32,000 nucleotides of DNA, from NCBI GenBank assembly GCA_001766815.1, contig LYOS01000004.1, positions 133,610-165,609 on the forward strand, in the 5' to 3' direction. Below, piece by piece: positions 1 to 27,427 of the stretch. Source of the stretch: Candidatus Syntropharchaeum caldarium. GTDB taxonomy: Archaea; Halobacteriota; Syntropharchaeia; Syntropharchaeales; Syntropharchaeaceae. The translations under genes and the position numbers were made by a program. Each line of letters begins with the position of its first letter. Position 1 is the stretch's first letter. The notes beneath the pieces were generated by a model that was not told where the DNA came from, did not search any database, and saw nothing but the letters and a program-made list of their open reading frames with translations.

Positions 1-2
1 GT

Positions 3-176: not shown

Positions 177-182
177 TAGCTA

Positions 183-1244: not shown

Positions 1245-1309
1245 GCTATATAGTGTTTTGATTTCGGTTAATCCATAAATGGTCGTTTGCTCAGTGTGTG
1301 GAAATAGAT

Positions 1310-2608: not shown

Positions 2609-3852
2609 GACAATGATAACCTCTCATATACTTCAAGATGTTTCTTTGCTATGATAGATGGCGAGTATCTCTTCTTAACCAATTCTTTGCCTCTTTTCCC
2701 CATTTCTCTCGCAACATCAGGATTCCCCAAAAGATATTTCACAGCATCAGCTATTTGTTTTGGATTTTTGGGTTCTACTAATATCCCCGTTTCCTCATGC
2801 TCGACAATTTCAGGAATTCCACCCACGTTTGATGCTATCACTGGCTTTCCCGCAGCCATCGCTTCAGCAGCCACCCTCCCAAATGTCTCAGGCACGACAG
2901 AAGGAAAAACAACTATATCAGTTGAGTTGTAGTAATCAAGCATTTTTTCTGCCTGTATAAACCCCTCAAAAATTATGTTTTGGTTAACTTCCAAATTCTT
3001 TGAAAGTTCTGCAAATTCTTTGTATCTTTCGCCATCGCCAATGATCCTTAGTATGCAGTCTGGAAATTCTTTTAAAATTCCCGGCATAGCTTTAATTACG
3101 TATTCACATCCCTTGAACTTTCCGAGAGCGCCAACAAACAAGATATTACTGTGTAATTTTTCAACCACTTTTTTATTTTCATATTTATCTACCTCAACAA
3201 TATTTGGAATGACGTATAAGATTTTGTTGTTAATGTTAAATATCTTCTCTACATAACTTTTGACGTTTTGAGATATGCACACAACTGCCCCTACACTTCG
3301 CACGGCTATTCTCCTTTCACGCATTTGTATTGGGGCATACAATGGTCCAAGTATTTTTTCATAAATATTTGGTGTTGGTGAATGCATGTAGCAATTTACG
3401 GTGTTTAAAAAGCTACACTCACCATTGCACACTTCATTATATGATTTTAACATGTATCCAGTTGGGCATGTTAGCCACTGGCTACTTATGGTTATTACTG
3501 AGGGTATTCTATATCTTTTTGCTGAGAGCACCGCACCTGGAATAGAATCCATGTTCATAGCATGCACCGCATTTATATCTTCATCTGCCAGAAACTTAGA
3601 CACTGCTTTATACGAATTCCAATAAAAAATCTCATTTCTGCTGAGATAATTCAATATGCCTGTCAGATCAACGTTTTTGATAATTGGATGCAGAGTAAAC
3701 TTGGAATCCTCTAATTGGTATATATTAGTGGATGTTATTACATGTACGTCCACTCCAATTTCTGTAAGTGCTTGTGCGAGATTATATGCACTTATCTCTC
3801 CACCGCCCCGTATATTAGGTGGGAAGTATCTGGATACGATAGCTATTTTCAT
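2605..3852 (-). CDS. glycosyltransferase family 4
   Basis: N-terminus MKIAIVSRYFPPNIRGGGEISAYNLAQAL and C-terminal EX7E region FPSVVPETFGRVAAEAMAAGKPVIASNVGGIPEIV. Overlaps the downstream dehydrogenase start by 4 nt (ATGA). Confidence 0.85.
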   Translation of the reverse strand: MKIAIVSRYFPPNIRGGGEISAYNLAQALTEIGVDVHVITSTNIYQLEDSKFTLHPIIKNVDLTGILNYLSRNEIFYWNSYKAVSKFLADEDINAVHAMNMDSIPGAVLSAKRYRIPSVITISSQWLTCPTGYMLKSYNEVCNGECSFLNTVNCYMHSPTPNIYEKILGPLYAPIQMRERRIAVRSVGAVVCISQNVKSYVEKIFNINNKILYVIPNIVEVDKYENKKVVEKLHSNILFVGALGKFKGCEYVIKAMPGILKEFPDCILRIIGDGERYKEFAELSKNLEVNQNIIFEGFIQAEKMLDYYNSTDIVVFPSVVPETFGRVAAEAMAAGKPVIASNVGGIPEIVEHEETGILVEPKNPKQIADAVKYLLGNPDVAREMGKRGKELVKKRYSPSIIAKKHLEVYERLSLS

Positions 3853-3862
3853 TTATGCTCCA

Positions 3863-4711
3863 TCAGGAATCTGTTACTTTTCTTGCACATGAGAGATCTG
3901 TCTCTGAAACCTGGGTGCCGCACGCCATCGCCTCAAGTATCGGAAGCCCGAAGCCCTCATACTCAGATGTATGCAGATAAACATCTGCTGCGTTATACAG
4001 CATAGGCATCTCCTCTTCTGGAACCCAACCCATGCTTACAACACCCTCACCCTCAAGTGACTCACCATATCCCGCCTTTATCATTTCCACACCCCCCCTT
4101 ACCGTTCTAACAGTATTAAATACTTTCCCTACAAGATCCATCCGTTTGTGCTCCAGACTGGATGATACAACAAGTATGTGTTTCTTACGAGGATCTAAAC
4201 CAAAGTACTCTTTACATCTAACTCTATCCATTGGCTTATATTTATCGTGATCAACACCCTGATGAACAACACTGATCTTCTCTTCTTCGAATCCCAGAAG
4301 CCTCATGAGCTCATTCTTCGTGAACTCAGAGATTGCTATTATTCTATCTGCTTTTTTGAGTGCTCCTGATGTTAGCATGAACTGGATTCTCAACGAAGTA
4401 TCGCTTATCTCGGAAGGGTAAACAAGAGGTGCTAAGTCGTGCACGGTTACGATGAATCTTCGTGGTTTATGAAAATAAACAGCAGGCGCTACGGTCTGTG
4501 ATGTTGCATGGACAAGATCGGCATCTTTAGAGTTGTAGAAGAGCCAGGAGAAGACGGTGCTTCCGAGAATCTTTCCTTCTTTTCGCCTTATTCTTTCTAT
4601 ATCCCACTCATGCTTCAGCCCTTTCATATGGCGAAAAAGCTCATCCTCATACTTTCGCAGTGCATACATTGGATGGCTTTTCTTGGAGATGTTCCAGTGG
4701 ATGATTTTCAT
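3863..4711 (-). CDS. glycosyltransferase family 4, apparently truncated at the C-terminus (possible pseudogene or remnant)
   Basis: The GT4 core is present up to HTSEYEGFGLPILEAMACGT. It is then followed by only 16 unrelated residues (QVSETDLSCARKVTDS) and a stop. The usual ~70-90 aa that follow EAMA.G.PV in GT4 enzymes are missing. The break coincides with a base-composition step near 3900. Confidence 0.6.
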   Translation of the reverse strand: MKIIHWNISKKSHPMYALRKYEDELFRHMKGLKHEWDIERIRRKEGKILGSTVFSWLFYNSKDADLVHATSQTVAPAVYFHKPRRFIVTVHDLAPLVYPSEISDTSLRIQFMLTSGALKKADRIIAISEFTKNELMRLLGFEEEKISVVHQGVDHDKYKPMDRVRCKEYFGLDPRKKHILVVSSSLEHKRMDLVGKVFNTVRTVRGGVEMIKAGYGESLEGEGVVSMGWVPEEEMPMLYNAADVYLHTSEYEGFGLPILEAMACGTQVSETDLSCARKVTDS

Positions 4712-4713
4712 AT

Positions 4714-5793
4714 TTAAGCTTCAACCTCCCTGTACAGGCTTAAAGTTTCCCTAACTATGTTATCCCATGAATATTTTTCAGCCCTTCTTCTCATTTCTGC
4801 TCCGATCGTTCTGTAATCTGAATTTAGAATCTCGATGATCCTCGAAGCCAGTTCATCTTTATCCCCTGCTTTCACCAGAAACTCCTCTGGCAGGTGTCCG
4901 ACTCCTGAAAAGATGTCTGTTGCAATACAGGGTTTCGATGACGCCATTGCCTCTAAAATCGTGATCCCGAAACCCTCGTCCGCGATACTTGGCTGGCAGT
5001 AGATGTCACATGTAGCAAAGAGCTGGATTTTTCTCTCTTCTGAAGGGTTCTGCAGGATCTGGACGTTTTTCATCCCTCCAGTTCTGTCCACAAGTTCAGT
5101 TATATATGATTTATCCTCTGCATAACCTGCAATCACAAGGTGTGCATCCTCAATACGCTCGTTCACAATCTTAAAAGCATCAATCAGGTACTCATATCCC
5201 TTATTCCTTGCAAACCTTCCAAACGATAGAATCACTTTACCATCACCAGGCGGCGCTGAGGTGATATATTTTTCAGGATCGATTCCAGCTGGTATAACCC
5301 TGATCTTCTCTTCATCTATCTTAAAACCCCTGAGTATCTCTTTTTTTGACCTCTCGCTGACTGTTATAACCTTCCTGGAACTTCTCATCGCCTTATCGAG
5401 GAGGAAAAATCTGATCTTATTTAGAAGACCCTTCCTTCCCAGAAACCCCACATCATGCACCGTCACGATCGCAGTTTTCACAAATAAACCCGAGAACTCG
5501 CCCCAGTATCCATTTATGTGAACCACATCATAATCCCCAAGTCTTGCCTTAAGCCCGGCGATGATACTGAAGAGAAAGGATCTGATGGCAAAGTGGATTC
5601 CTGGTAGATGAATGACCTCTGCCTCCTCATAATCCACATCATCATAGGTCAGGATCGTGACTTTATTTTCCTCCCTGATTCGTTTGAAGATCTCATACAT
5701 GTATAGCTCTGCTCCACCGATTGTTGCAGGATAAAATTGTTTTGAGATCAGACAGATCTTCGTTTTACCCTCTCCTCTGGTCAATGTAACCAT
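4714..5793 (-). CDS. glycosyltransferase family 4
   Basis: N-terminus ICLISKQFYPATIGGAELYMYEI and EX7E region CQPSIADEGFGITILEAMASSKPCIATD. The stop lies 2 nt from the next start. Confidence 0.85.
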   Translation of the reverse strand: MVTLTRGEGKTKICLISKQFYPATIGGAELYMYEIFKRIREENKVTILTYDDVDYEEAEVIHLPGIHFAIRSFLFSIIAGLKARLGDYDVVHINGYWGEFSGLFVKTAIVTVHDVGFLGRKGLLNKIRFFLLDKAMRSSRKVITVSERSKKEILRGFKIDEEKIRVIPAGIDPEKYITSAPPGDGKVILSFGRFARNKGYEYLIDAFKIVNERIEDAHLVIAGYAEDKSYITELVDRTGGMKNVQILQNPSEERKIQLFATCDIYCQPSIADEGFGITILEAMASSKPCIATDIFSGVGHLPEEFLVKAGDKDELASRIIEILNSDYRTIGAEMRRRAEKYSWDNIVRETLSLYREVEA

Positions 5794-6661
5794 ACAGATA
5801 CCCGAGACCCACGCTCGCCGTACATACCAGTATGAAACCCAATTCTCCCACCTTACCTCTTTTCAGCTTAGAAGGCACGCTCTTGAATAGAAGTTGCTTT
5901 AAATAACCCCTTTCTTCTTCAATTAAATATCCCATTCCCCTCATCATCTGTTTTGAGTAGCCCTGCCAGAAAGCTCTTCTCAATAAAAATCGCATCCTCA
6001 ATCGCTCAGGGAAGATCTTGTGATAGACGATCGCATCCGGGTTGTAGATAACGCCTTTCCCGAACTTATCCTGCATCCGTTCACAAAATTCAGTCTCCTC
6101 GCCCTGGAGTTGCCCACCTCCTCGCAGTCCCATCTCGCTCCTAAACCCACCCATACTCTTTATTACATCAGATCTGAAGCTGATATTCGATCCAAATGTG
6201 TTTCTAACCTCGCACACCTCTTCAGGAAAGCCCCTGTGTGTTGCCCCGATGAGCCAGTAGTACTCCTCTGGTAGAAAGATTGGTTTCTTTTTCAGCCATA
6301 AAGGAAGTAGTTTTCCACCTGCTGCGATCGCATCATGCTCTTCATACATTTTAACAAGTTCCCCAAGCCACTCAGGATCTGCGATCGCATCATCATCGAA
6401 GAAGGCAATAATCTCTCCTTCCGCCACCTTTATTCCACGATTTCTACTCTCAGAAAGCCCTAAATTTACCTCATTCAATATGATTTTATCGATCTCGACC
6501 CCACTATTTAGAACCCGATCATAAAGCTCCCTGTTACCATCAACAACGACTATCACCTCGAAATTACTGTACGTCTGGCGGCGCAAACTCTCTATCGCCT
6601 CGATGAGATCCTTGTAACGCTGGTGTACACATATTATAATCGTAACAGGCGTATCCTGCAT
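5765..6661 (-). CDS. glycosyltransferase family 2 with C-terminal membrane segment
   Basis: GT-A signature VTIIICVHQRYKDLIEAIESLRRQTYSNFEVIVVVDGN and DxD motif AFFDDDAIADPEW. Hydrophobic C-terminus (ELGFILVCTASVGLGYLYGYI). Confidence 0.85.
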   Translation of the reverse strand: MQDTPVTIIICVHQRYKDLIEAIESLRRQTYSNFEVIVVVDGNRELYDRVLNSGVEIDKIILNEVNLGLSESRNRGIKVAEGEIIAFFDDDAIADPEWLGELVKMYEEHDAIAAGGKLLPLWLKKKPIFLPEEYYWLIGATHRGFPEEVCEVRNTFGSNISFRSDVIKSMGGFRSEMGLRGGGQLQGEETEFCERMQDKFGKGVIYNPDAIVYHKIFPERLRMRFLLRRAFWQGYSKQMMRGMGYLIEEERGYLKQLLFKSVPSKLKRGKVGELGFILVCTASVGLGYLYGYIDQRRG

Positions 6662-6664
6662 AAT

Positions 6665-7897
6665 TTACTCAACAAACGCAGATACAATCAGCGCACCTCC
6701 GACCGCTCCCGCAAACTGTGGATATGGCGGTATAATAATATCAAACCCGAGTATATCCTCGAATGCAACTTTAAGCCCCTCGATGAGTGCCGTGCCCCCC
6801 ACTTCAATGATCGGTTCTCTGAGATCGACCTCCTGGAGCTGCTGTTCATGAACCTGCTCTGCCACGCTCCTGCATGCAGCTGCTGCAACATCCTCCTTCG
6901 ACGCACCCTCACCAAGCGCAGATACAAGCGACTGGATGCCAAATATCGAGCAATAGCTATCCATCACGATCTTACTTGCATCACCTTTGAGTGCGAGATC
7001 ACCAAGCTCTGAGATATCGACACCGAGACGTCTTGCTGTTATCTCAAGGAATCGCCCTGATGCACCGGCACAGACACCACCCATCGTGAAGTCATCAGGA
7101 ATTGCATTGTTCAGTGTGAGAGCCTTGTTGTCCATCCCCCCAATATCAAGCACCGTTGCCTCGCCCCGCTGTCTGTCTGCGAGAAATGCGGCGCCTTTGG
7201 AGTTCACGGTAAGTTCTTCCTGCACAAGATCCGCACCAATCTCATCCCCCACAACATGTCTGCCATAGCCTGTTACAGCCACGGCCCCAATCTCAGACAT
7301 CTTCATCCCAGCATCTTCCAGTGCGAGGTCTATAGCTTTTTTTGCACTCCCCACCACTTCGGTCGTTGGAAGCCAGCCCGTGCCTATAACCTCATTTTCT
7401 TTCATTATCACGCACTTTGTCGTTGAAGAACCGCTGTCAACGCCCATCGTTATCCCTTCCTGTTTTGTTCGCATTAGGAGGGTCTTTCGCGTAACCAGCG
7501 TCTTTAACGCCTCAAGTCTGATCATAAGCCCGCCTTCTTTCACATGATCAACGGTAGAGTAGGTGATGACAGGCAGATCTGTCTCACGCTGGAGAAATTT
7601 CCGTATTTCGTTCTTTACGATCGAGCCTTCTGCACACTTGAAGCACGTCAGAAGTAGCACTCCATCCACCACACTGATATCATCAAGAACTGAGAGAGCA
7701 CGCGCGATCATGAGGTTCAATCCTGGACTTTTTGCCCTGTATCCAAACTCTCGCACGGCTTCTGCCACATTATCGAGTTCAACCTCGGGATAGACAAGCT
7801 TGATGCCTGATCGTTCGGCGACCTCATTGAGCTTACCCTGAACCCCGCTGTACTCCGTACCACACGAAATCTGGGCTATCCTTGTTTCATTTGCCAT
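6665..7897 (-). CDS. methanogenesis marker protein 15-like (N-terminal archaeal domain plus BadF/BadG/BcrA/BcrD-type ATPase domain)
   Basis: The C-terminal half has acetate/sugar-kinase-fold ATPase motifs (GVDSGSSTTKCVIM, LDIGGMDNKA, GGTAL). The N-terminus IAQISCGTEYSGVQ and the ~410-aa length match my recollection of the marker-15 family. The family name was assigned from memory, not by a search. Confidence 0.65.
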   Translation of the reverse strand: MANETRIAQISCGTEYSGVQGKLNEVAERSGIKLVYPEVELDNVAEAVREFGYRAKSPGLNLMIARALSVLDDISVVDGVLLLTCFKCAEGSIVKNEIRKFLQRETDLPVITYSTVDHVKEGGLMIRLEALKTLVTRKTLLMRTKQEGITMGVDSGSSTTKCVIMKENEVIGTGWLPTTEVVGSAKKAIDLALEDAGMKMSEIGAVAVTGYGRHVVGDEIGADLVQEELTVNSKGAAFLADRQRGEATVLDIGGMDNKALTLNNAIPDDFTMGGVCAGASGRFLEITARRLGVDISELGDLALKGDASKIVMDSYCSIFGIQSLVSALGEGASKEDVAAAACRSVAEQVHEQQLQEVDLREPIIEVGGTALIEGLKVAFEDILGFDIIIPPYPQFAGAVGGALIVSAFVE

Positions 7898-7909
7898 CTT
7901 ATACCACCT

Positions 7910-8350
7910 CTATGATTCCAGCGATCTCAGAAAATCAGTGACATTCTGAACCAGTATCTTTGCCGCATCCTCATCATAAGGATACGGAACAATGAGCGTT
8001 GGAACGCCTTTTGATCGTATCATATACTCGATGTAGTCGTTTGCAGCCGCGCAGGCCATACAACCAAAGCTTGGATCGGCATCTTCCACGATGATCGCAG
8101 CTTCTGCCTCGTCAACGAGCGGTATCATCAGCCCAACGCGCCCACGGACACCGGAGGGTTCCTCCACCGAGAGGTACTTCAGTGCACGTTTGAGGTCCTC
8201 TTCGACAATGTTAATCGGTGGAGAGTCAAGTTCTGGATCTCTAACCTTCTTTGCAATCTGTTTCATCAGTACAACCGCTTCATGCCCCATTCGTTCAACA
8301 AGATCTGCGAGAATTAAGCTATTTGGAGGATAGATTAGCACTTTCATCAT
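7910..8350 (-). CDS. methanogenesis marker protein 5-like small protein
   Basis: 146 aa. MKVLIYPPNSLILADLVER...DSPPINI...PSGVRGRVGLMIPLVDEAEAAIIVEDA..FGCMACA resembles my recollection of the marker-5 family. It sits directly upstream of the marker-15-like gene. The assignment is tentative. Confidence 0.5.
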   Translation of the reverse strand: MMKVLIYPPNSLILADLVERMGHEAVVLMKQIAKKVRDPELDSPPINIVEEDLKRALKYLSVEEPSGVRGRVGLMIPLVDEAEAAIIVEDADPSFGCMACAAANDYIEYMIRSKGVPTLIVPYPYDEDAAKILVQNVTDFLRSLES

Positions 8351-9241: not shown

Positions 9242-9523
9242 ATGGCTAAGAAGTACACGAAGAAAGGCCGCAAATCCAGATCAGCGGGTAGATTTGGGGC
9301 GAGATACGGTAGAAAGATACGGAAACTTGTTGCTGACGTTGAAGAACAGATGCGAGCACCATACAACTGCCCCTCTTGCAATAAACAATTCGTTTCAAGA
9401 GTGGGGACCGGGATCTGGAAGTGTTCAAAGTGCGGGTTGATATTTACAGGTGGTGCATACGTCCCAACCACTCCAGTAGGGGAGTCCGTATTTAAAGCGA
9501 TTAAAAGGTCGCAGGATGAATGA
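9242..9523 (+). CDS. rpl37ae: 50S ribosomal protein L37Ae (eL43)
   Basis: [28 protein letters not shown] followed by the zinc ribbon CPSC...CSKCG. I start it at ATG 9242, which is preceded by GGTGGAGAAGG, rather than at the ORF-track start of 9218. Confidence 0.9.
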
Positions 9524-9968
9524 GCTACAAAAAAATCTTTTGAACGAGCTTCAAACAGGAATCCCAGTCGTTGAAAGACCTTTTCTCGAGTTATCAAAAC
9601 GGCTTGGGCTTGAGGAGAGTACGCTCATCGAAGAGATACGGTCACTACTTGAGAAAGGTTACATCAGACGGATTGGCCCAATATTCGATGCTTCTGCACT
9701 TGGTATGGTAGGTACGCTTGCTGCGATCGCAGTCCCTGAAGAAGAGCTTGATCGTGTGGCAAATTTCATAAACAGATTTGAAGAAGTATCACACAATTAT
9801 CTGAGGGTTGCTGAGGGTGTACCTTACAATCTCTGGTTTACAGTATCAGCGAAGGATAACGATGAACTCGATCGTATAATAAGCAGGATCAGGGAAGAGA
9901 TCGAATACCCGCTTATAGTACTCCCAACAAAGAGGCTTTTTAAGATAGGCGTTGAATTCAGGCTGTGA
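9516..9968 (+). CDS. ahbA: siroheme decarboxylase subunit (AhbA/AhbB, NirD/L/G/H-like Lrp/AsnC-fold protein)
   Basis: [50 protein letters not shown] is the N-terminal winged-helix pattern of the NirDL/Ahb family. It is paired with a paralogue and lies next to hemA. Which paralogue is A and which is B cannot be decided by eye. Its start overlaps the rpl37ae stop (ATGAATGA). Confidence 0.7.
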
Positions 9969-9978
9969 GGTTTGGCAG

Positions 9979-10437
9979 ATGGATCAGGTGGATCGTGAGA
10001 TCTTGGAAAAAATTCAGGATGGCATTCCCATAGTTGAAAAGCCGTTTTCTGAGATTGGAGAATCGCTCGGACTTGATGAGAGTGAAGTGATCGACCGATT
10101 GAACAGATTGATCGATGAAGGGAAAGTACGGCGTTTTGCAGCCTCGATTGCACACATCAAGGTCGGGATAAACGCGAACGCGATGTGTGTATGGGATGTT
10201 CCTGATGAGCGTGTGGAGGAGGTTGGCTCGATCTGTGCGAGTTTTCCCGAGGTTACACACTGTTATGAGCGGCCAAGGTTGGATGACTGGCATTATAATC
10301 TATTTACAATGGTTCATGGAAAGAGTCGAAAAGAATGTGAAGAAGTTATCCAGCGAATCTCAGAGCGGATAAATATAGATACTTTTATTATTCTCTTCAG
10401 TGATAAGGAATATAAAAAGACTGGTGTCAGGCTTTAG
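9979..10437 (+). CDS. ahbB: siroheme decarboxylase subunit (AhbA/AhbB paralogue)
   Basis: ILEKIQDGIPIVEKPFSEIGESLGLDESEVIDRLNRLIDEGKVRRFAASI is paralogous to the preceding gene. I start it at ATG 9979, which has GTGAGGT 9-14 nt upstream, rather than at 9952. Confidence 0.7.
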   Translation: MDQVDREILEKIQDGIPIVEKPFSEIGESLGLDESEVIDRLNRLIDEGKVRRFAASIAHIKVGINANAMCVWDVPDERVEEVGSICASFPEVTHCYERPRLDDWHYNLFTMVHGKSRKECEEVIQRISERINIDTFIILFSDKEYKKTGVRL

Positions 10438-10454
10438 ACGGAGGGAAGCTCGCG

Positions 10455-11702
10455 ATGGATGAGATCTGGAGCATACTAATCACCCACAAGACCGCTGACA
10501 TAGCTGATATTGAGCGGGCGTGGCATGGAGATGTGAAAAGCCTGAATCGTATGATTGCATCGGATGAACATGTAGAAGAGTGTGTCTCGCTCAAGACCTG
10601 CAACCGTGTCGAGGTCTATATCGTATCGTCTGAACCCACCAAGGTCTTTGATAGGATCCTTGCGAGGGCAAAGAAGGGCGGGTTATTCGATCTCATCGAG
10701 ATACACGATCCAAAACGATCGATCTTTCACCTATTGAGGCTTTCTTCTGGGCTTGAATCGATGATGGTTGGTGAAGATCAGATACTCGGACAGATCAAAG
10801 ATCTATTTGAGTTAGCCAAAGAAAGTGGAACAGTTGGACCTAAGCTAAATCATGTATTTAACAAGGCGATACAGGTTGGAAAACGAGTAAGATCAGAGAC
10901 CAATATCAACAAAGGCTATATATCGATTGGATCTGCGGCTGTGGATCTTGCAGAGAAGATAATTGGTGAGCTTGTTGACAAGAAGATTCTCATCATCGGT
11001 GCGGGTGAGATGGCAAATCTTGTCGGCAAGGCGCTCGCGGCAAAGGGACTTGAGGCGATCTATATCGCAAACCGTACATTTGAGCGCGCGCGTGTGATGG
11101 CAGAAAAACTTGGTGGGGTTGCGGTCAGGTTTGATGAGATAGAATCATACCTTGGGATTGCAGATATTGTGATAAGTGCGACCTCTGCACCGCATTTTGT
11201 TATAACTACTGATATGGTAAAAGCAGCGATGGCTGAGCGTAATAAAAAACTCCTTCTCATCGATATTGCAAATCCACGCGATATAGAGGCGGAAGTCGGC
11301 GAGATCCCGGGCGTGAGCCTGCAGAATATTGATAACCTCCGTATATTAAGCGAGAGGAATATTGAACGCCGCAAGATGGAGGTTGAGAAGGTTGAACAGA
11401 TCATAGCCGAAGAGTATGATCGGCTCGTAGATGAATTTAAGGTGAAAGCGGCTGACGGAATCCTGAACCAACTTTATACGATGGCGGAGGATATACGTAG
11501 AAGAGAGACCGAACGGGCACTGCGGATGATAGATCTATATAATTATGACCCTGAAAAGACGGTAAAGATCGTTAATGACCTGACCAGTGCGATCGTGTCG
11601 AAGATTCTGGCAGACCCCACGACTGCAATAAAGAACGCAACAAGATGCGATAATAAGGATCTCGTCCTTGCAGCATCCTGTCTATTCGACCTGAGTGATT
11701 GA
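10455..11702 (+). CDS. hemA: glutamyl-tRNA reductase
   Basis: Catalytic-cysteine motif SLKTCNRVEVY, then GLESMMVGEDQILGQIK and the NADPH site IIGAGEMA. SD GGAGGG lies 8 nt upstream. Confidence 0.92.
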   Translation: MDEIWSILITHKTADIADIERAWHGDVKSLNRMIASDEHVEECVSLKTCNRVEVYIVSSEPTKVFDRILARAKKGGLFDLIEIHDPKRSIFHLLRLSSGLESMMVGEDQILGQIKDLFELAKESGTVGPKLNHVFNKAIQVGKRVRSETNINKGYISIGSAAVDLAEKIIGELVDKKILIIGAGEMANLVGKALAAKGLEAIYIANRTFERARVMAEKLGGVAVRFDEIESYLGIADIVISATSAPHFVITTDMVKAAMAERNKKLLLIDIANPRDIEAEVGEIPGVSLQNIDNLRILSERNIERRKMEVEKVEQIIAEEYDRLVDEFKVKAADGILNQLYTMAEDIRRRETERALRMIDLYNYDPEKTVKIVNDLTSAIVSKILADPTTAIKNATRCDNKDLVLAASCLFDLSD

Positions 11703-12333
11703 TTATATGCGCGCATCCTGTCTGATCACGTTCATACTTATTCTGATGATCCTCCCACCACTCTTCATGCAGGGCGTGGGAGCAAAGGATGTTTATCCGC
11801 CGGGGATTACCCGTCTACTTGGGGGTGGCCATCCAACCCAGGCATGTGATTACTGCCATTCTGTTCTAATTCCCGATCGATCTGAGCGAAATGGTATTCT
11901 TGGCTCATGTATCTGCCATAAAGATCAGTACTCACCCTCTGGAAAGGTGGATATGGATCTTGTGAGCAAAGGACATGACGGAAAACCCTGTGTACGGTGT
12001 CATACCGGTCTCAAGCTTGCAGAACTTGATGCAAACCAGTATCACCTCCTCCATGCGAATGTTGAGTGCACATGGTGCCATAAGAAGAGCACAACAGGGT
12101 TCATGGTTCCCGAGATGACGTGCGATGATTGCCATACAGGAGGGCCGCATGTTGTGCATGAGGGTAAAACCGAAATGCTCTGCACGGCATGTCACGGTCA
12201 GTATGGCGAGCAGTATCAGAGTGCAGGAGCACCGATCTCAAAAGTTGTGAACGGGACAGAAGAGGCTTCAAGAGAGTATATCACGATTCTTGGAATTTTT
12301 AAAAGTCTACTGGGCAGGTATCTCGGTGCGTAA
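11695..12333 (+). CDS. secreted or membrane-anchored multiheme c-type cytochrome (five CxxCH sites)
   Basis: Five canonical heme-binding motifs: CDYCH, CVRCH, CTWCH, CDDCH and CTACH. There is also one CICH (CxCH). N-terminal signal/TM segment CLITFILILMILPPLFMQGVGA. The start is either GTG 11695, which overlaps the hemA stop, or ATG 11707. Confidence 0.8.
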   Translation: MIDYMRASCLITFILILMILPPLFMQGVGAKDVYPPGITRLLGGGHPTQACDYCHSVLIPDRSERNGILGSCICHKDQYSPSGKVDMDLVSKGHDGKPCVRCHTGLKLAELDANQYHLLHANVECTWCHKKSTTGFMVPEMTCDDCHTGGPHVVHEGKTEMLCTACHGQYGEQYQSAGAPISKVVNGTEEASREYITILGIFKSLLGRYLGA

Positions 12334-12748
12334 TCCAGTTCTCTTTCTCATCCTTTCACTCCTTCTCGCAGCATCAGGCTGCATTCAAACAACTGTCCCT
12401 GTTGTGAAGGCAGATATTAAAATCGAGCTTATAGATGGCACACCTGTGATAACTGCCATCAACCTGACCCCCTCTGAGGTTAACATACTCCGTGCACCAG
12501 CTGGTACAGATGTTGGGTTTCCGAGCGTGAATGGTCAGATGATCATAAACTTCGAGAACGTTGGATACTGGGCAGCGACTCCTTACAGAGGTGCGGGTAA
12601 TTACCTGCTTACACTGGGGTTCAGAAGGGACAGACTACCAGAAGATTTGGATCACATCAAAGTAGTTATCACGGTCAATGATGCAAATGGCAACACCATC
12701 GCCAGAGGGCAGCAGATGCTGATCTGGGGTTATAATGAGGATGAATAG
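12326..12748 (+). CDS. small secreted lipoprotein, function unknown
   Basis: From in-frame GTG 12326 the product begins (M)RNPVLFLILSLLLAASGC, a signal peptide with a lipobox-like LAASGC. GTGCGTAA overlaps the cytochrome stop, suggesting translational coupling. The ORF-track start at 12290 would place 12 extra residues before the signal peptide. Confidence 0.5.
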   Translation: MRNPVLFLILSLLLAASGCIQTTVPVVKADIKIELIDGTPVITAINLTPSEVNILRAPAGTDVGFPSVNGQMIINFENVGYWAATPYRGAGNYLLTLGFRRDRLPEDLDHIKVVITVNDANGNTIARGQQMLIWGYNEDE

Positions 12749-12764: not shown

Positions 12765-12772
12765 TTTTATAA
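12765..12772 (+). promoter_or_regulatory. candidate TATA box for the rsbRSTX-like operon
   Basis: TTTTATAA lies in the 70-nt gap upstream of the operon. The predicted TSS is near 12795, leaving a leader that contains GTGAGG before ATG 12820. Confidence 0.35.
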
Positions 12773-12819
12773 TGTTTGCACGTGAAATATAGATAGATCT
12801 GTGCGTGAGGTATGTGAGA

Positions 12820-13662
12820 ATGGTCAGCGATAAAAATGTTACAGCGAAACTGGTCGCCCTCTTCGAAGAGAGCGAAGAGGAATTGATAGATCGCTGGATT
12901 GAGAGGGTGGAGAAGCTAAAGCTTGTTAGTGGGCTTTCGGAGGAAGAGAGAGCCAAACAATTTAAGTATGTCTATCATGCAAGTCTCATGGCCCTTAAGA
13001 GCGAGGATTACAGTGAGGTCAAGGCGCTTGCAAGCAGGATCGCAAAACAAGGCTCGCTTGAAGGCATACCGGTCAATGAGATCCTTTTGAGCTTCATGCA
13101 GTTGCGGGATGTTCGCATAAGAAAACTCTTCATGACATACCGTGATAATCTCGACGAGCTCCTTGATTTGCTGGAACACTTCGAGCAGATCTCGAACAAA
13201 ATGTTCTCAATCGTCGTATCGGCACTACTGAAAGAACAGGAGAAAGTGATATACGAGCAGCAGCGTGCCATGCTTGAACTCTCAACACCTGTCCTTCAGC
13301 TTCGAGATGAAGCGCTTGTCATGCCGTTGATTGGAGTAATCGATTCAGATCGGGCATCGAGGATTGTGGAAGAGTTGCTTCGAAAGATCGTCGAGACACG
13401 GGCTTCGGTCGTTGTTATGGATATGACCGGTGTACCGGTCATCGATACAGCTGTTGCAAATCACATATTAAAAACCGTCATGGCTGCAAAACTGCTCGGA
13501 GCTGAGACAATAATCACGGGAATAAGCCCTGCAAATGCCCAGACGATTGTAACACTCGGTATTGACCTTTCGATGATCAAAACAAAGAGCACACTCCAGG
13601 AAGGAATCAAATTGATGGATGAAATACTTGGATTAGAAGTTAGAAAGGGGCATAAGCAATGA
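12820..13662 (+). CDS. rsbR: RsbR-like stressosome sensor (N-terminal RsbR-type helical/globin-like domain plus C-terminal STAS domain)
   Basis: The C-terminal STAS reads VLQLRDEALVMPLIGVIDSDRA...VVVMDMTGVPVIDTAVANHILK...TGISPANAQTIVTLGI. Both Thr contexts phosphorylated in Bacillus RsbRA are kept (V.DT and AQT). An N-terminal ~150-aa helical domain precedes it. Start placed at ATG 12820. Confidence 0.8.
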   Translation: MVSDKNVTAKLVALFEESEEELIDRWIERVEKLKLVSGLSEEERAKQFKYVYHASLMALKSEDYSEVKALASRIAKQGSLEGIPVNEILLSFMQLRDVRIRKLFMTYRDNLDELLDLLEHFEQISNKMFSIVVSALLKEQEKVIYEQQRAMLELSTPVLQLRDEALVMPLIGVIDSDRASRIVEELLRKIVETRASVVVMDMTGVPVIDTAVANHILKTVMAAKLLGAETIITGISPANAQTIVTLGIDLSMIKTKSTLQEGIKLMDEILGLEVRKGHKQ

Positions 13663-14024
13663 TCATTCCAATACTCAAGATCGGTGATGTTCTGATCGTA
13701 ACCATCCAGACCGAGCTTACAGATCGTGAGATTGAGGAATTGAGCCATGATATCCTGGATCAGATAAAGAAGGTCGGTGCAAGAGGGGTTGTCATCGATA
13801 TTTCTGCCCTCAAGACAGTTGACAGTTACATGGCAAGGTCACTCAACTCGATTGCAAGTGCATCGATGTTGCTCGGTTCCGAGACGGTTGTGGTTGGTAT
13901 CCAGCCTGCGGTCGCATTGACACTGGTGGAACTCGGGCTTCGTGTGAGCTGGGGCGTGAAAACTGCGCTGAACCTTGAGAAAGGACTTGAAATGCTGAAA
14001 GTCAATGTGAAAAAGTCCGGGTGA
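13659..14024 (+). CDS. rsbS: RsbS-like single-STAS stressosome scaffold/antagonist
   Basis: 121 aa. IPILKIGDVLIVTIQ...GVVIDISALKTVDSYMA...VVVGIQPAVALTLVELGL, with the conserved phospho-acceptor Ser in the VDS context. ATGA overlap with rsbR. Confidence 0.85.
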   Translation: MIIPILKIGDVLIVTIQTELTDREIEELSHDILDQIKKVGARGVVIDISALKTVDSYMARSLNSIASASMLLGSETVVVGIQPAVALTLVELGLRVSWGVKTALNLEKGLEMLKVNVKKSG

Positions 14025-14434
14025 AATATTCAATGGACGATGAACGAGTTCTCAAGGTGGAGAGAGACGTTGATGTAATTTATATACGCGAAGTGGGCAG
14101 GGAGATGGCAGCTGAAGCGGGTTTTGGGGTGCTCGATCAAACACGAATTACAACCGCGATCTCAGAGCTTGCCCGCAACATAATCGTTCATGCAAATTGT
14201 GGACTGGTTGTGATCAGAAAGGTCCAAAGAGGCGATAAAATAGGAATTGAGATTGTATGCAAAGATGAGGGGCCAGGGATTGAAGACATCGATAAGGCAC
14301 TCAAGGAAGGTTATACAACATCAGGGGGGCTTGGGATCGGGATGGCGGGGGCAAAACGGCTGATGGATGAGTTCCATGTCGAGTCTGTCCAGGATAAAGG
14401 TACCACAGTAGTTGTGAGGAAATGGCTGAAGTGA
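14021..14434 (+). CDS. rsbT: RsbT-like serine/threonine kinase (GHKL/HATPase, anti-sigma-factor-type)
   Basis: N box ELARNIIVHA, G1 box DEGPGI, G2 box TSGGLGIGMAGAKRL. 137 aa. GTGA overlap with rsbS. Confidence 0.85.
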   Translation: MKYSMDDERVLKVERDVDVIYIREVGREMAAEAGFGVLDQTRITTAISELARNIIVHANCGLVVIRKVQRGDKIGIEIVCKDEGPGIEDIDKALKEGYTTSGGLGIGMAGAKRLMDEFHVESVQDKGTTVVVRKWLK

Positions 14435-15006
14435 AGATCGGGATTGCAACACGTCCCAGAAACGGATACTTCGAGAATGGTGATGGATATTTCACCAAAC
14501 AGTGGGACGATATGCTCTTTCTTGCCATCTTTGACGGGCTTGGACATGGGAAGGTTGCAGCAGCGGCATCAGAAAGGTGTCTCTCAATCCTCAAAGAATA
14601 CTATCAAGCTCCGTTATCTGTGATCTTCGCGACTGCACACGATGCACTTCGCCGTACACGTGGCGTTGTGATGGGAATCGCCCTGGTCAATCTCTCCACG
14701 CTTCTGTTGAGGTATGCGGGAGTGGGCAACATTGCAACAATGGTTATCAGCGATGAGCAAAGCACACACCTCATCTCGATGGATGGAATTGTGGGTTACA
14801 CTCTACCTACCATAAAAGAGTTCACACACCAGCTTATACATGGGGATGTCATCATGATGTATACGGATGGGATCTCATCATCCAACCTTTCTCTCTGTCC
14901 ACGTGAACAATTGAAGGGCGCAGATCCACAATTTGTCTCAGAAGAGATCCTGAAGAAACATGCCAAGAGCGAGGATGATGCAACCATTCTGATCGCTCAT
15001 ATCTGA
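14422..15006 (+). CDS. rsbX: RsbX-like PP2C/SpoIIE-family phosphatase
   Basis: GDGYF, FDGLGHG, MYTDGI and EDDATILIA are PPM metal-binding motifs. 194 aa. 13-nt overlap with rsbT. Confidence 0.8.
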   Translation: MAEVKIGIATRPRNGYFENGDGYFTKQWDDMLFLAIFDGLGHGKVAAAASERCLSILKEYYQAPLSVIFATAHDALRRTRGVVMGIALVNLSTLLLRYAGVGNIATMVISDEQSTHLISMDGIVGYTLPTIKEFTHQLIHGDVIMMYTDGISSSNLSLCPREQLKGADPQFVSEEILKKHAKSEDDATILIAHI

Positions 15007-15102
15007 AGCAGAAATGGGCACTGACTCCGCTCATCGTGGTGAACAAAGTTATATATATGAACAGGGGAATGTATCTCTATTGTAAAGATAGGAGGTTCAA
15101 AA

Positions 15103-15429
15103 ATGAGTAAATGGTTATGGCCACAGCCAAACAAAAAAAACTGGCTTGTCGTGACAGATGAGAAAGCAGGAACAATAAAAGTATACAGCGAGAAAGGTGA
15201 ACTTCTAACCGATAAAACAAACTTAAGTGAAGTCGTAGTAAAACTGATCGAGAAGAATTTCTTTGATACGGTTGGCATCAAACTCTCTGAGCTTGGTGAG
15301 CCGTTAAACCCTGCAATGGAAAAAGCAGTGAAGGAGTGTCACGGCTGTTCATTATCAACACAGGCCACAGAGAGTAAGGAAACCACAAAGAAGCAGAGTT
15401 TTAAAGAACCTGATCCGATGTTCGCCTGA
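15103..15429 (+). CDS. hypothetical protein (108 aa)
   Basis: Strong SD (GGAGGT 7 nt upstream) and a TATA-like TTATATATAT at 15049-15058. No recognisable family. AT-richer than its neighbours. Contains a CHGC motif and a charged, disordered-looking tail. Confidence 0.45.
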   Translation: MSKWLWPQPNKKNWLVVTDEKAGTIKVYSEKGELLTDKTNLSEVVVKLIEKNFFDTVGIKLSELGEPLNPAMEKAVKECHGCSLSTQATESKETTKKQSFKEPDPMFA

Positions 15430-19820: not shown

Positions 19821-19990
19821 ACTGCATTTTTGAGCAGTTCCCGCTCGTCTTTTTCTCCCTCAAATATCTGCGTGAGCTTATCCTTCACAGGGATTATATC
19901 CTTCAGCGCTTCCTTTCTCAGCTTCATTGGATCTGGTATCAAAACATCACCTTCTACCACATCTATGGTATTTATATGCACTTCAACCAT
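19766..19990 (-). CDS. hypothetical small protein (74 aa), uncertain
   Basis: The ORF has a protein-like charged/helical composition (KLRKEALKDIIPVKDKLTQIFEGEKDERELLKNAVYTIGDLEKRRKK). However, it has no room for its own promoter or SD, and its 3' end overlaps nreA by 55 nt. Confidence 0.3.
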   Translation of the reverse strand: MVEVHINTIDVVEGDVLIPDPMKLRKEALKDIIPVKDKLTQIFEGEKDERELLKNAVYTIGDLEKRRKKDARVR

Positions 19991-20023
19991 ATATATATGA
20001 TGGATGATGAGGGAGGCGATTTG

Positions 20024-20842
20024 ATGGAGCTTGACCTGAATGTGATCCCGAGTGGTGTAGAGTCACTGGACAGGATGATTGGGGGAGGTTTTCCATCGGG
20101 TTCATTCATCCTGCTTCACGGCGAGGTTGGAGCAGGCAGTGCGGAATTTCTCCACACCTCACTCATAAACTCCGTGCGTTTACTCGATGAGATATCACTG
20201 AAGAAAGTCTGCTACATAACATTTACCAGGCTTGTAGCGGATGTTAAACGGGAGATCGCGCTCTCGTTCGATGATAAAGTGCAGAATATCATAAATGATC
20301 AGCGAATAATCTTCAAGGACTTCTCAAAAGAGTGTTTCCAGAATTCAGCCCTGCCCTTCACATGGAATCCTGAGTTTGACTCAAGCTTTGAAGCTTTGAA
20401 GGGGTGCGGGGATCGGCATGCTTTTCTTGAACTTCTTGTATCATTCCTGAATGATAATGCAAACGAGAGTGTTATCATATTTGATTCGCTCACTGACCTT
20501 GTGCGGCTTTATTATGATTCTATGGGCTGGCAGGATCTTATAGCTTTTCTTAAAGGGCTTCAAAGAGAGTCTAAAAGATGGGGTGGGCTTGTTTACGGTA
20601 CGCTGACATCAGACATCTTCAACAGAGGTATTGAAGAGGAGATTGCAGACTGTGCAGACGGTGTGATCGTGTTCAGGTGGGATGAAACCGAGACAAGGAT
20701 CAGACGCAGGTCCCTTTACATCAGGAAGTTTCGTGGACTTCTCCCGGTACTGGAAGAAACCAAGCTGCTCCGTCTTGAAACTAAATTCACGCCAGGAAAT
20801 GGTTTTGAGGTCATGAATATCAAGATGGTAAGGGGGGAGTGA
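20024..20842 (+). CDS. KaiC/RecA-superfamily ATPase-like protein with degenerate Walker A (probable pseudo-ATPase)
   Basis: N-terminus MELDLNVIPSGVESLDRMIGGGFPSGSFILLHGEVGAGSAEF. The P-loop lysine and Ser/Thr are replaced (GAGSA instead of GxGKT/S). A Walker-B-like VIIFDSLTDL is retained. Start chosen at ATG 20024, which has GGGAGG 8 nt upstream. A TATA-like TTTATATG lies at 19972-19979. Confidence 0.7.
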   Translation: MELDLNVIPSGVESLDRMIGGGFPSGSFILLHGEVGAGSAEFLHTSLINSVRLLDEISLKKVCYITFTRLVADVKREIALSFDDKVQNIINDQRIIFKDFSKECFQNSALPFTWNPEFDSSFEALKGCGDRHAFLELLVSFLNDNANESVIIFDSLTDLVRLYYDSMGWQDLIAFLKGLQRESKRWGGLVYGTLTSDIFNRGIEEEIADCADGVIVFRWDETETRIRRRSLYIRKFRGLLPVLEETKLLRLETKFTPGNGFEVMNIKMVRGE

Positions 20843-20888: not shown

Positions 20889-21545
20889 ATGCTCGGTGGC
20901 GGAATCCCCGAAAAAAACATTATCGCGGTACTTGGAGGATATGGGAGCGGTAAGACGATACTTGGGATGCAGTTCATTAACAGGGGGCTTGAAGAGGATG
21001 AGAGGGGCGTTTTTATCAGTTTTGATGAGGATGAGGATAAGCTTATCAGGATTGCATCAAATATAGGCTGGGATTTTGGATCCGCAATCAAAGATCGTAT
21101 GCTGGTTCTCATCAGGCTGGATGCTGCAGATATCGGCAGATCACTCACCAGGGCGCAGAGTGAACTCCCCACTCTCATAGAAACATTTGATGCAAAACGG
21201 ATTGTCATCGATCCGATAACACTCTTTGAGATGCACTTCAGGGATGATGAAAGTAGAAGACGGGAGATCTCAAAATTATGCACGATCATTCAGGCATCTG
21301 GTGCAACAACCATGCTGACGTCCGAGATCTCGACCGATAACCCATTTGCATCAAAGTATGGAGAGATCGAGTACATCGCAGATGGTGTTATAATCTTTCA
21401 GCACATTCGACCTGCACCGCTGAAGCGATCGATCCTTGCAGTTGAGATCGCAAAGATGCGTGGCGTGAAACACGCAAGGGATGTCAAGCCCTATGATATT
21501 ACCGATAAAGGAATCGTTGTGGACTTTGATGCTGATCTCTTCTAA
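20889..21545 (+). CDS. KaiC/RecA-superfamily ATPase (intact Walker A/B); true 5' end unresolved
   Basis: Walker A VLGGYGSGKTILGMQF, Walker B AKRIVIDPITLF, and IAKMRGVKHARD. The first ATG is at 20889, but the in-frame codons 20841-20888 encode ELDFPRISTGVAGLDD. This is the conserved N-terminal motif of this family, and it has no ATG/GTG/TTG ahead of it. Confidence 0.75.
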   Translation: MLGGGIPEKNIIAVLGGYGSGKTILGMQFINRGLEEDERGVFISFDEDEDKLIRIASNIGWDFGSAIKDRMLVLIRLDAADIGRSLTRAQSELPTLIETFDAKRIVIDPITLFEMHFRDDESRRREISKLCTIIQASGATTMLTSEISTDNPFASKYGEIEYIADGVIIFQHIRPAPLKRSILAVEIAKMRGVKHARDVKPYDITDKGIVVDFDADLF

Positions 21546-22654
21546 TCTACAAAATTTTGCGGGTGATTGGAGACCATCCCAAGCACATAACCCGCGGTGA
21601 ATACATCCCCCCTCCCCACAGCCTGTTTTAGCGATTTTACAGGATAGACCCCACAGGTCACAGCAATAAGATTGCCCCCCCCTTCAACCACCGCTTTCTG
21701 TGATGGTGCAATCCCATGAAGAACTTTTAAAACCTCATCCAGATCTGGAAATTCACCCTTTGTGATATACGCTGCAGCAACTGCCGCACCAAAATCAAGC
21801 GATCTGATAAATGCCGCTAAAATACCTTCCTGCTCAAGACCCACGATGAACTTTTCTGTGTGAATTACGATCCGTTTGAGGCTGTATCGATCCATAACCG
21901 CTCCTGCCCTATCGATCATCACACCTGGGGTTATTTCAAGCCCACTCGATTCTGCAAGGGCAAGAAACTCTTCACCGTTCATACCAAGACTATCAAGCAA
22001 TCCACCGATCTTTGTGAGAAGCTCATGCGCTACAATAAGGCTTCTGAAAGCACCAAGCTCGCAATGAATGAAAAGACGGGGGTTTTTATCTTTCCACCGC
22101 TTAATAAGATCTAAAACCGCATCAATCTTCTCGCTGTAGCCATGATCTGGCAGAAGATGAAATCCAGAGATGATCGCGCCCCTCATGTGATCTACTTCCT
22201 GGATTGAATCCTCAACAAAAGCTGGATCGATTACAAACTCCTCTTCGAGCCCGCCATTTACGATGAATCGCTCTTTACCACCAGATGGGAGATCGAACTC
22301 AAATACGAAGTGAACGAGCTCTCCTCCAGATGGTGCTGGACGGTTCAGGATGATCGGTGATACGCCAAGTTTAGAAAGCACCTCTGCCATTATCGCAGCA
22401 TTTCCACCGATTCTACGGGTTGCATGATATGTATCAAAGATCTCTTTGAGCTTTTTGATCGTCTCTTTATCGACTGAGACCTCATTCCCAACCCCCTCTC
22501 TCATCGACTGGACGAGATCTGGGTAGATACTGGTATCTCTTATAGACTCAAGCAGTTCGTCGCTCACCCTGAGTATTGCATCGATATTTGAGTTGAAGGC
22601 GAGAATAAAGCCTCCATCAGATAGTCCACTCATTATTTCTGCTTCTTCTCCCAT
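21542..22654 (-). CDS. ADP-dependent sugar kinase family protein (PfkC/GlkA-like, ribokinase superfamily)
   Basis: N-terminal [15 protein letters not shown] (NxNxD), FIHCELGAF (H.E.A motif) and C-terminal [13 protein letters not shown] (GxGD anion hole). At 370 aa it is shorter than the characterised ADP-PFK/GK enzymes as I recall them (roughly 450 aa). An alternative start at ATG 22633 forms a TAATG junction with the upstream gene. Confidence 0.55.
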
Positions 22655-23922
22655 TTGTAAAGCTCAATAACCTGTGAAAGTGTTTTACCCCGTCTGATCT
22701 CCTCGCGCACACGATCCTCGTTCTTCTTGACCTCCATAGCCCGTCTTGCAATCTCATATCCACGCTCTTTAGGGATCACCATCACACCGTTGTCATCACC
22801 CACGATGTAATCACCTGGTCGAACCTTTACCCCGCCGCAGGTGATCTCTGCATTTATCTCACCAAATCCTTTGGGGTCGCCTGCATTTGAGACGATGCCA
22901 CTTGCAAAGATTGGAAAACGCATCTCTCTGATGTCATCGATGTCTCTTACAGGCCCATCGATTACAAGTGCAGCTATACCTCGATTCTGGGCACTGTGAG
23001 ATGCAAGTTCACCCCACGGCGTTATATAATCACTTCCATTGAAGATTACGAGTATATCGCCCTCGCCTGCAACATCGATCGCCTCAACGGTCTTTGCCCA
23101 GTCGCCACCAAACGTCTGAACCGTCACCGCTCTGCCCGCAACCTTGATCCCCTCAAATATTGGTCGAATTCCTCGCATACATGGCTCTCTGTGCATTGCA
23201 TCAGAGATATTCGGGGTTGAAACCTCCATAAAGAGTCTTATAGTTTCTTCTTCAATGGTCTCACGCTTTTTATCGGTTATTTCTGCATTATCTATCGCTT
23301 CACGGATCAATCTCGTTGAACCTGTTACATCAGCAGATCGTATGATATTCCCACCAACGATCACAACTTCTGCACCCGCTGCAATAGCATGTGCCGAGCT
23401 TTCGGCATCAAGACCACCTCCAACAGCAAGCGGTGTCTCAACCTCTTTCACGATCGCCTCAAGAAGCTCAATCGTATCCACGCCAACCATCTGTTGATCT
23501 ATCCCCACGTGGACGCAGATGTAGTCAACGCCAATCTCTTCGAGTTCTTTTGCCTTCTTGACAGGGTCAGGTACATTTATTAAATCAACCATCAGCTGGA
23601 CGCCATACTCCCGTGCAGACCTGAGTGCATCCTCGATCGTTGAGTTGTCAGCAGCAGCAAGTATCGAGACAATATCAGCACCCGCCTTTGCCGCCATCTC
23701 AACCTCGATCGCACCTGTATCCATCGTCTTCATATCTGCAACAATCGTCTTATCAGGAAACTTCTCGCGCAGAATACGGATTATATCCATGCCCACGCTC
23801 TTGATAAGTGGTGTTCCAGCCTCAATCCAATCAGCACCTCCCTCTACTGCCTCCTTTGCAATCTGGATGGCACGATCAAACTCCAGAAGATCGAGCGCAA
23901 CCTGAAGTTTGGGCTTCATCAA
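22633..23922 (-). CDS. hps: bifunctional 3-hexulose-6-phosphate synthase (OMP-decarboxylase fold) / RraA-family domain protein
   Basis: N-terminal HPS pattern [37 protein letters not shown]...[11 protein letters not shown]-terminal RraA/DlpA-like pattern [44 protein letters not shown]. Confidence 0.8.
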
Positions 23923-25127: not shown

Positions 25128-25197
25128 AAGATAACTACAAGCTGTTTCGTAGCTTAAGATAGCTTTAAATTTTATCATCACCGAGAATATTCTGGTG

Positions 25198-27333: not shown

Positions 27334-27427
27334 GAAAATTTTATTATACACCTTTGGATAAATTTTAACCAGCGAGATGTGAGGGGTTAAGATTTATCAC
27401 AGATACCTGGGAGCATGCTTAGCATTT

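Follow-up and report, generated by a model that had tools for sequence, protein, structure and literature searches.

An intact minimal stressosome operon, rsbRSTX, in Candidatus Syntrophoarchaeum caldarius, with no RsbU_N output gene beside it

What can a stressosome control in an organism without sigma factors? The question is raised by a 32,000-nt stretch of DNA from Candidatus Syntrophoarchaeum caldarius, a butane-oxidising archaeon; this whole stretch is called the window, and all coordinates count from its first letter. At 12.8–15.0 kb it carries four tightly packed open reading frames (ORFs) on the forward strand, whose products are identical to OFV67508–OFV67511, encoded on a 221-kb contig of the same species, and which a preliminary description of the DNA, made from the letters, had read as a complete RsbR-RsbS-RsbT-RsbX module. 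Four-gene rsbRSTX modules lacking sigB and rsbUVW are widespread and occur 'even [in] some archaeal species' (PMC9237108; also PMC8942246). Archaeal modules of this kind are therefore already known, and the S. caldarius locus adds one. Its only unusual feature is a genus-specific absence of the RsbU_N output gene that adjoins the module in the other archaea examined.

The module itself was upheld by profile, solved-structure and homologue searches. Pfam assigns a STAS domain to the C-terminal half of RsbR (5e-16), STAS to RsbS, HATPase_c_2/HATPase_c to RsbT, and SpoIIE (PP2C) to RsbX. Among solved structures, RsbR is matched best by the RsbR chains of the Listeria and Vibrio stressosomes (E 6e-34), the alignment with Listeria RsbR (7b0u_A) spanning residues 24–270, and RsbS is matched best, end to end, by a stressosome RsbS (6qcm_A, 3e-29, residues 2–115). 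The best solved-structure matches of RsbX are MtX of Moorella thermoacetica (3zt9, 1.5e-20) and RsbX of B. subtilis (1e-10); the title of its public record, OFV67511.1, 'serine/threonine protein kinase', is a mis-annotation of an RsbX-type PP2C phosphatase. RsbT is named as such in the public record. In a large protein collection it has more than 1,500 homologues below 1e-10 and shows 50–55% full-length identity to 133-residue Bacillaceae proteins that their sources name RsbT. An alignment of 121 RsbT sequences shows that Syntrophoarchaeum keeps every position conserved in at least 85% of them, with two exceptions, both conservative (I→V and L→M).

The kinase is also the protein that could point to another identity, namely a generic SpoIIAA/SpoIIAB-type partner-switching set with no stressosome. 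Its NCBIfam and solved-structure matches are to SpoIIAB alone, as no RsbT sequence was matched in the PDB search, and 'anti-sigma' names occur in the public record. Yet RsbR and RsbS fit stressosome proteins far better than SpoIIAA-type proteins (6e-34 and 3e-29 versus at least 1e-3), the identity of the kinase to named RsbT proteins is high, and the contiguous, co-oriented R-S-T-X order is that described for the minimal module. We regard the SpoIIA-type reading as scarcely credible. Judged from these matches, the four genes are orthologues of rsbR, rsbS, rsbT and rsbX and make up an intact minimal stressosome module.

The residues on which such a module depends are also intact in all four proteins. 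The VDS serine of RsbS, the N, G1 and G2 boxes of RsbT and the metal-binding Asp motifs of RsbX (FDGLGHG, TDGI and EDD) were all located, in agreement with the preliminary description (Table 1). For RsbR, that description had named two threonine acceptors. One of them, the V.DT threonine, stands as Thr210 in VIDT; the other, in AQT (13537–13545), corresponds to no known acceptor site, and the other canonical acceptor position, the first along the protein, is held by Ser176. The equivalent Listeria residue, T175, lies in the context IDTERA, and Vibrio RsbR also has a serine there (IIDSKRA). Ser176 and Thr210 are invariant across seven archaeal RsbR orthologues.

The organisation of the genes is consistent with an operon that has its own promoter. 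A putative TATA box, TTTATA, lies ~50 nt 5' of the rsbR start codon, and a conserved GAGGT precedes the ATG at 12820; together, these two elements indicate that rsbRSTX is its own transcription unit. The GAGGT and the lengths of the orthologues favour this ATG as the most likely start, rather than the GTG at 12805. The feature had been drawn from position 12765, which falls in the promoter TATA box. Its genes had also been described as translationally coupled throughout. The ATGA overlap of rsbR with rsbS and the 13-nt overlap of rsbT with rsbX are present, whereas the rsbS/rsbT junction is uncertain: it is either a GTGA overlap (GTG at 14021) or an 8-nt gap (ATG at 14033). The three Syntrophoarchaeum rsbT orthologues compared (L001, L002 and L013) start at the position of the ATG, the public record carries the 133-residue form, and a GGTGA could serve that ATG as ribosome-binding site. 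A scan for sigma-70 promoters and intrinsic terminators found nothing; its models are bacterial and not applicable to archaea.

Conservation of the locus could be followed in five loci of Syntrophoarchaeum or its near relatives, referred to as Syntrophoarchaeum-type loci: L001, L002 (S. butanivorans), the GoM loci L013 and L014, and the window itself. All five share the same order of R-S-T-X, a small ORF, and the convergent genes thiDN and dapF, and the four Rsb proteins are 61–86% identical to those of the window. Pairwise ratios of nonsynonymous to synonymous divergence (dN/dS), which are approximate with dS near saturation, are 0.04–0.15 for rsbR, 0.08 for rsbS, 0.18–0.24 for rsbT and 0.12–0.15 for rsbX, similar to those of the housekeeping neighbours thiDN (0.18–0.20) and dapF (0.08–0.15). 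These values argue that the module is kept by purifying selection in Syntrophoarchaeum and is not decaying. In a neighbour-joining tree of RsbT, computed without bootstrap from a short protein, eight Syntrophoarchaeum-type sequences are sister to a clade of 28 that includes Methanoperedens, Methanosarcinales and Euryarchaeota. The tree suggests that the S. caldarius module shares descent with an archaeal lineage of Methanoperedens and Methanosarcinales modules. The surroundings are archaeal, with genes for ribosomal protein S6e, Nre, an IF2B/IF5-type translation factor, ThiD-ThiN and DUF2112, and with conserved TATA boxes.

The same data bear on whether the four genes might be what is left, in decay or without function, of a bacterial operon gained by horizontal transfer, a reading that appeals to the bacterial character of such systems and to the lack of an adjacent output gene. 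It is set against intact catalytic and acceptor residues, low dN/dS (0.04–0.24) among species whose Rsb proteins have diverged to 61–86% identity, retention of the module at five loci, a guanine-plus-cytosine (GC) content of 47–48% that is the same as that of the flanks, and the archaeal clade shared with Methanoperedens-type modules. We consider a relic highly improbable.

If the module is intact, its output has to be sought. No RsbU/V/W-like, GGDEF or histidine-kinase gene is present in the window or in the 10 kb beyond each end (about 52 kb), so that the preliminary description was right that none follows the module. Its further claim, that the lack of sigma factors in archaea leaves the module without any known output partner, proved too strong. 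The contexts of the closest non-Syntrophoarchaeum RsbT homologues were fetched through RsbT, and an RsbU_N-domain protein lies next to the module in every other archaeal lineage examined, that is, in the sister clade and in two further archaeal-labelled lineages. First, in Methanoperedens, a Methanosarcinales metagenome-assembled genome (MAG) and Euryarchaeota, the gene directly after rsbX encodes RsbU_N (PF08673, 1e-10 to 1e-13) joined to three or four GAF domains, and Cache-GAF and MEDS-HisKA-HATPase genes come next; in the other arrangement of these loci, RsbU_N-GAF-HisKA-HATPase is the fusion and the next gene encodes a response regulator. All sister-clade members whose contexts were read have such an RsbU_N-GAF(-HisKA-HATPase) gene directly 3' of rsbX. 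Second, a Syntropharchaeia MAG has the order response regulator, PAS-STAS, RsbS, RsbT, RsbU_N-HisKA-HATPase, RsbX. Third, a contig labelled 'Thermoplasmata' (L011; also L012) has rsbRSTX directly followed by an RsbU_N-GGDEF gene (L011 2253-3431) and a gene for a second RsbU_N protein (3442-4197). A diguanylate cyclase is unusual for an archaeon, and contig L011 may be mis-binned.

The RsbU_N proteins beside archaeal modules show that a canonical output route exists in archaea without sigma factors. The preliminary description had held that a canonical output gene adjacent in closely related genomes would tell against its claim; such a gene is found at the level of order or class, and no Syntrophoarchaeum-type locus has one at that place. 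Most simply, an RsbU_N output gene would have stood beside the module in the archaeal ancestor and would have been lost from this position in Syntrophoarchaeum. Because the RsbU_N-GAF or histidine-kinase arrangement is found in the sister archaeal lineages, S. caldarius may encode its output at another place in the genome, as an RsbU_N-domain protein of the GAF or histidine-kinase type, a proposal to which we give roughly even chances. KaiC-family genes were seen near two modules: in S. caldarius, a pair of neighbouring KaiC-family ATPase genes (19976-20842 and 20889-21545) is found 5 kb downstream of the module, and in a related archaeal locus (L022/L023; L022 2113-3600) a KaiC-like ATPase gene stands shortly before rsbRSTX, which may be coincidence.

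The mechanism that we propose is taken by homology from the Bacillus, Listeria, Moorella and Vibrio systems, and this applies to complex assembly, phosphorylation and output alike. RsbR and RsbS would come together by way of their STAS domains and hold the kinase RsbT captive in a large scaffold, which in stressosomes is a pseudo-icosahedral complex of about 1.5–1.8 MDa. When the globin-like, non-haem N-domain of RsbR perceives a signal, RsbT would phosphorylate Ser56 of RsbS and Ser176 and Thr210 of RsbR, and the freed RsbT would then activate its downstream partner. RsbX would dephosphorylate the scaffold and thereby reset it. In the sister archaeal lineages, the RsbU_N output would pass the signal to a two-component pathway and not to a sigma factor.

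We consider it likely that the locus is a functional minimal stressosome operon of an archaeal lineage, with the mechanism and output just described. Several points weigh against this reading. RsbR could be modelled only at low confidence (see below). An RsbU_N profile built from the archaeal loci, which recovers RsbU_N at 1e-35 to 1e-49 in all the other archaeal rsb loci fetched through RsbT, found no match at E ≤ 10 in a six-frame search of the window, the 10 kb on either side and the four other Syntrophoarchaeum-type loci. The same profile retrieved only four short proteins, none from the genus, from a collection of 5.8 billion proteins, and a metagenome scan with it returned two loci, neither attributable to the genus; both of these searches are uninformative. 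An adjacent RsbU_N gene is typical of such modules but not strictly defining, since many bacterial modules have no recognisable RsbU_N partner: rsbRSTX is followed by many downstream architectures, non-sigma outputs included, and only some contain RsbU_N (PMC9237108).

A different explanation of the empty position is that Syntrophoarchaeum lost the RsbU_N output altogether and signals non-canonically, with RsbT phosphorylating or binding a different target, possibly the 108-residue protein (SCAL_001430) encoded directly downstream of rsbX. The small ORF follows rsbX in all five Syntrophoarchaeum-type loci; its product shares 72–99% identity with the homologues compared, dN/dS is 0.04–0.07, and these data mark it as a real gene under strong purifying selection. 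Together with the absence of an RsbU_N gene from the five loci of the genus, and with the Vibrio modules, most of whose downstream partners also lack RsbU_N (PMC9237108), this constancy is what speaks for a non-canonical target. Against it, the small gene has its own conserved TATA box (TTATATA), which indicates a separate promoter, and a ribosome-binding site also precedes it. Synteny alone may account for the linkage within the genus, as this block also retains thiDN and dapF, and RsbT shows no lineage-specific change at conserved positions.

The small protein itself has no similarity to RsbU_N. It was tried as a remnant or relative of that domain and ruled out (hhalign probability 0.06%), no family was found for it in Pfam or PHROGs, and its structure model is poor (predicted local distance difference test, pLDDT, 52), with no significant Foldseek match. 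An exhaustive profile search retrieved 53 relatives, nearly all of 52–127 residues and two inside much larger proteins. Those read have the first ~65 residues in common (W-x-W-x-QP…GTI-V…E-x-NFF), and most add a C-terminal PMF/YA tail after a variable linker. Two distant relatives had readable contexts (L015/L016 6001-6264 and L017 6001-6288), both without rsb genes: the nearest one outside Syntrophoarchaeum shares a tailed-virus-like block with genes for RuvC, an exonuclease and a tape-measure-like protein, and the other adjoins FlaD/E genes. By these alignments the protein belongs to an uncharacterised family of small archaeal and viral proteins. Its own TATA box and the occurrence of relatives away from rsb genes make it probably an unrelated neighbour, outside the stressosome module. 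Loss of the output with non-canonical signalling is accordingly judged unlikely, and the narrower proposal, in which an intact stressosome was kept after the loss of RsbU_N and RsbT acts on a new kind of target with the small protein as candidate, is a little less likely still. A functional module with an RsbU_N-type output remains our preferred reading.

What the module might sense was approached through the N-terminal ~145 residues of RsbR. They match the Pfam family RsbRD_N below threshold (E 5e-4 to 2e-3) in three of six orthologues, and a profile of the domain found no significant match among the sequences of solved structures. A single-sequence AlphaFold model of RsbR is all-helical, with a mean pLDDT of 51 and values of 60–75 in the N-domain, and the fold matches obtained with it are, at this low confidence, only supportive. 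Foldseek ranked Listeria RsbR first (7b0u, 5e-7), then the N-domain of Moorella MtR (3zta), then sensor globins; target-normalised TM-scores against the haem sensor globins AfGcHK and HemAT were 0.55–0.62. The likeness to non-haem RsbR N-domains is at least equal to that to the haem sensors. Taken together, the model suggests that the N-domain has a globin-like fold.

A haem-binding globin is a further step, and the preliminary description had taken it as a tempting idea, with redox, O2 or haem as the input. Upstream of rsbR lies an operon for haem synthesis and extracellular electron transfer (9516-12748) with two siroheme decarboxylase-like genes, hemA and a cytochrome with five CxxCH motifs (Table 1). 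In a reading where the module senses haem, O2 or redox through a haem-binding RsbR globin linked to these genes, the neighbourhood would be meaningful; the N-domain model also resembles AfGcHK and HemAT, and Vibrio RsbR does bind haem (PMC4976288, PMC9237108). The comparison of loci and sequences does not bear this reading out. The hemA/multihaem-cytochrome block is specific to S. caldarius; in the other four Syntrophoarchaeum-type loci its place before rsbR is taken by genes for ribosomal protein S8e and an HtrA-like protease, and rsbR is preceded by a separate conserved promoter. Among the seven archaeal orthologues, no His or Cys of the N-domain is conserved, so that there is no proximal ligand and a Vibrio-type haem-binding N-domain is unlikely. 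In a phmmer search, the haem-binding RsbR of Vibrio aligned with the archaeal protein only from residue 116 (116–279), whereas the non-haem RsbR of Listeria aligned from residue 24; the matches to RsbRD_N are weak. We hold a haem-linked input to be very unlikely and retain a non-haem, globin-like sensor in the proposed mechanism.

Comparison with known systems places the locus among minimal modules. The Moorella thermoacetica (MtR/MtS/MtT/MtX) and Vibrio (VvRsbRSTX) modules have the same R-S-T-X order, an RsbR with globin-like N-domain and STAS domain, an RsbS that is a single STAS domain with the DS serine, an RsbT of about 133 residues, and an RsbX that is a single-domain PP2C phosphatase, for which MtX is the best match; with Vibrio, S. 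caldarius also shares a serine as first RsbR acceptor. The hosts of both are bacterial whereas that of the present module is an archaeon, and the sequels differ: a diguanylate cyclase gene follows the Moorella module and D1/D2 two-component proteins follow that of Vibrio, whose RsbR binds haem, in contrast to the lack of haem evidence in S. caldarius, where an unrelated small gene and convergent housekeeping genes come next. The modules of Methanoperedens, Methanosarcinales and Euryarchaeota (L004–L009, L020–L023) are the closest, with RsbT ~60% and RsbR, N-domain included, 45–48% identical and with the same order and tight coupling; they differ in the RsbU_N gene directly after rsbX, which Syntrophoarchaeum lacks at the locus. 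In the rsbRSTUVW-sigB-rsbX operons of B. subtilis and Listeria, the core proteins and acceptor positions correspond (Listeria RsbR T175/T209 and RsbS S56), the N-domain is of the non-haem globin type, and the partner-switching logic would be the same. Unlike these operons, the S. caldarius locus has no RsbU, RsbV, RsbW or SigB, its rsbX follows rsbT directly, and the first RsbR acceptor is a serine where Listeria has a threonine.

Table 1. Positions of the rsbRSTX operon, its functional residues and its immediate neighbours in the window
Feature	Position	Strand	Description
Siroheme decarboxylase gene, first	9516–9968		NirDL/AhbAB-like
Siroheme decarboxylase gene, second	9952–10437		NirDL/AhbAB-like
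hemA	10455–11702		
c-type cytochrome gene	11695–12333		212 residues, five CxxCH motifs, N-terminal hydrophobic segment
Gene for protein without family	12290–12748		152 residues
Putative archaeal TATA box of rsbRSTX (TTTATA)	12766..12771	+	invariant in four Syntrophoarchaeum loci
rsbR	12820..13662 (ATG)	+	280 residues; 285 with alternative GTG at 12805
RsbR predicted sensor N-domain	about 12820–13254	+	globin-like; followed by a linker helix and a C-terminal STAS domain
RsbR Ser176	13345..13347	+	in IDSDRA, position of Listeria T175; Ser181 in GTG numbering
RsbR Thr210	13447..13449	+	in VIDT, position of Listeria T209; Thr215 in GTG numbering
rsbS	13659..14024	+	121 residues, single STAS domain
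RsbS Ser56	13824–13826	+	in VDS, aligned with the Listeria RsbS acceptor serine
rsbT	14033..14434 (ATG)	+	133 residues, GHKL serine kinase; 137 with alternative GTG at 14021
RsbT N box	14165–14179	+	ELARN
RsbT G1 box	14264–14278	+	DEGPG
RsbT G2 box	14324–14341	+	GGLGIG
rsbX	14422..15006	+	194 residues, single-domain PP2C/SpoIIE-type phosphatase
Putative TATA box of the small gene (TTATATA)	15049..15055	+	invariant in four Syntrophoarchaeum loci
Small gene (SCAL_001430)	15103..15429	+	108 residues, directly downstream of rsbX

Other parts of the window deserve a brief record. Its beginning (1-6661) is occupied by a large glycosyltransferase and polysaccharide-synthesis cluster that runs on for 10 kb upstream (Logan contig, L024), and GC content falls to 31% in the first kilobase. 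A BadF/BadG/BcrA/BcrD-type ATPase gene (410 residues) adjoins that for DUF2112 (146 residues) at 6665-8350, a pair conserved in archaea. Downstream of the module, an ADP-dependent sugar kinase homologue (21542–22654) adjoins a gene for a 429-residue fusion of an OMPdecase/HUMPS-family domain with an RraA-like aldolase (22633-23922). A pair of large, probable surface proteins is encoded at 25195-29245: the one, of 712 residues, has a beta-propeller domain (PF09826, 1.6e-169), and the other, of 605 residues, has a bacterial TSP3 repeat and a weak, sub-threshold match to the Ig-like domain Big_1.

The literature that we searched contains no paper on archaeal stressosome outputs and no experimental study of an archaeal stressosome. 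As to the window, the outcome is chiefly a well-founded annotation with corrected details, above all the mis-named RsbX and the serine at the first RsbR acceptor. More broadly, the stressosome module of alkane- and methane-oxidising archaea appears to be a single archaeal lineage, whose wiring, where it is visible, runs to RsbU_N-GAF or histidine-kinase proteins, and this answers what a stressosome would control without sigma factors. The Syntrophoarchaeum loci, which have no adjacent output gene, depart from this pattern and may serve, in a modest way, as a natural test of how RsbT is directed to its target.

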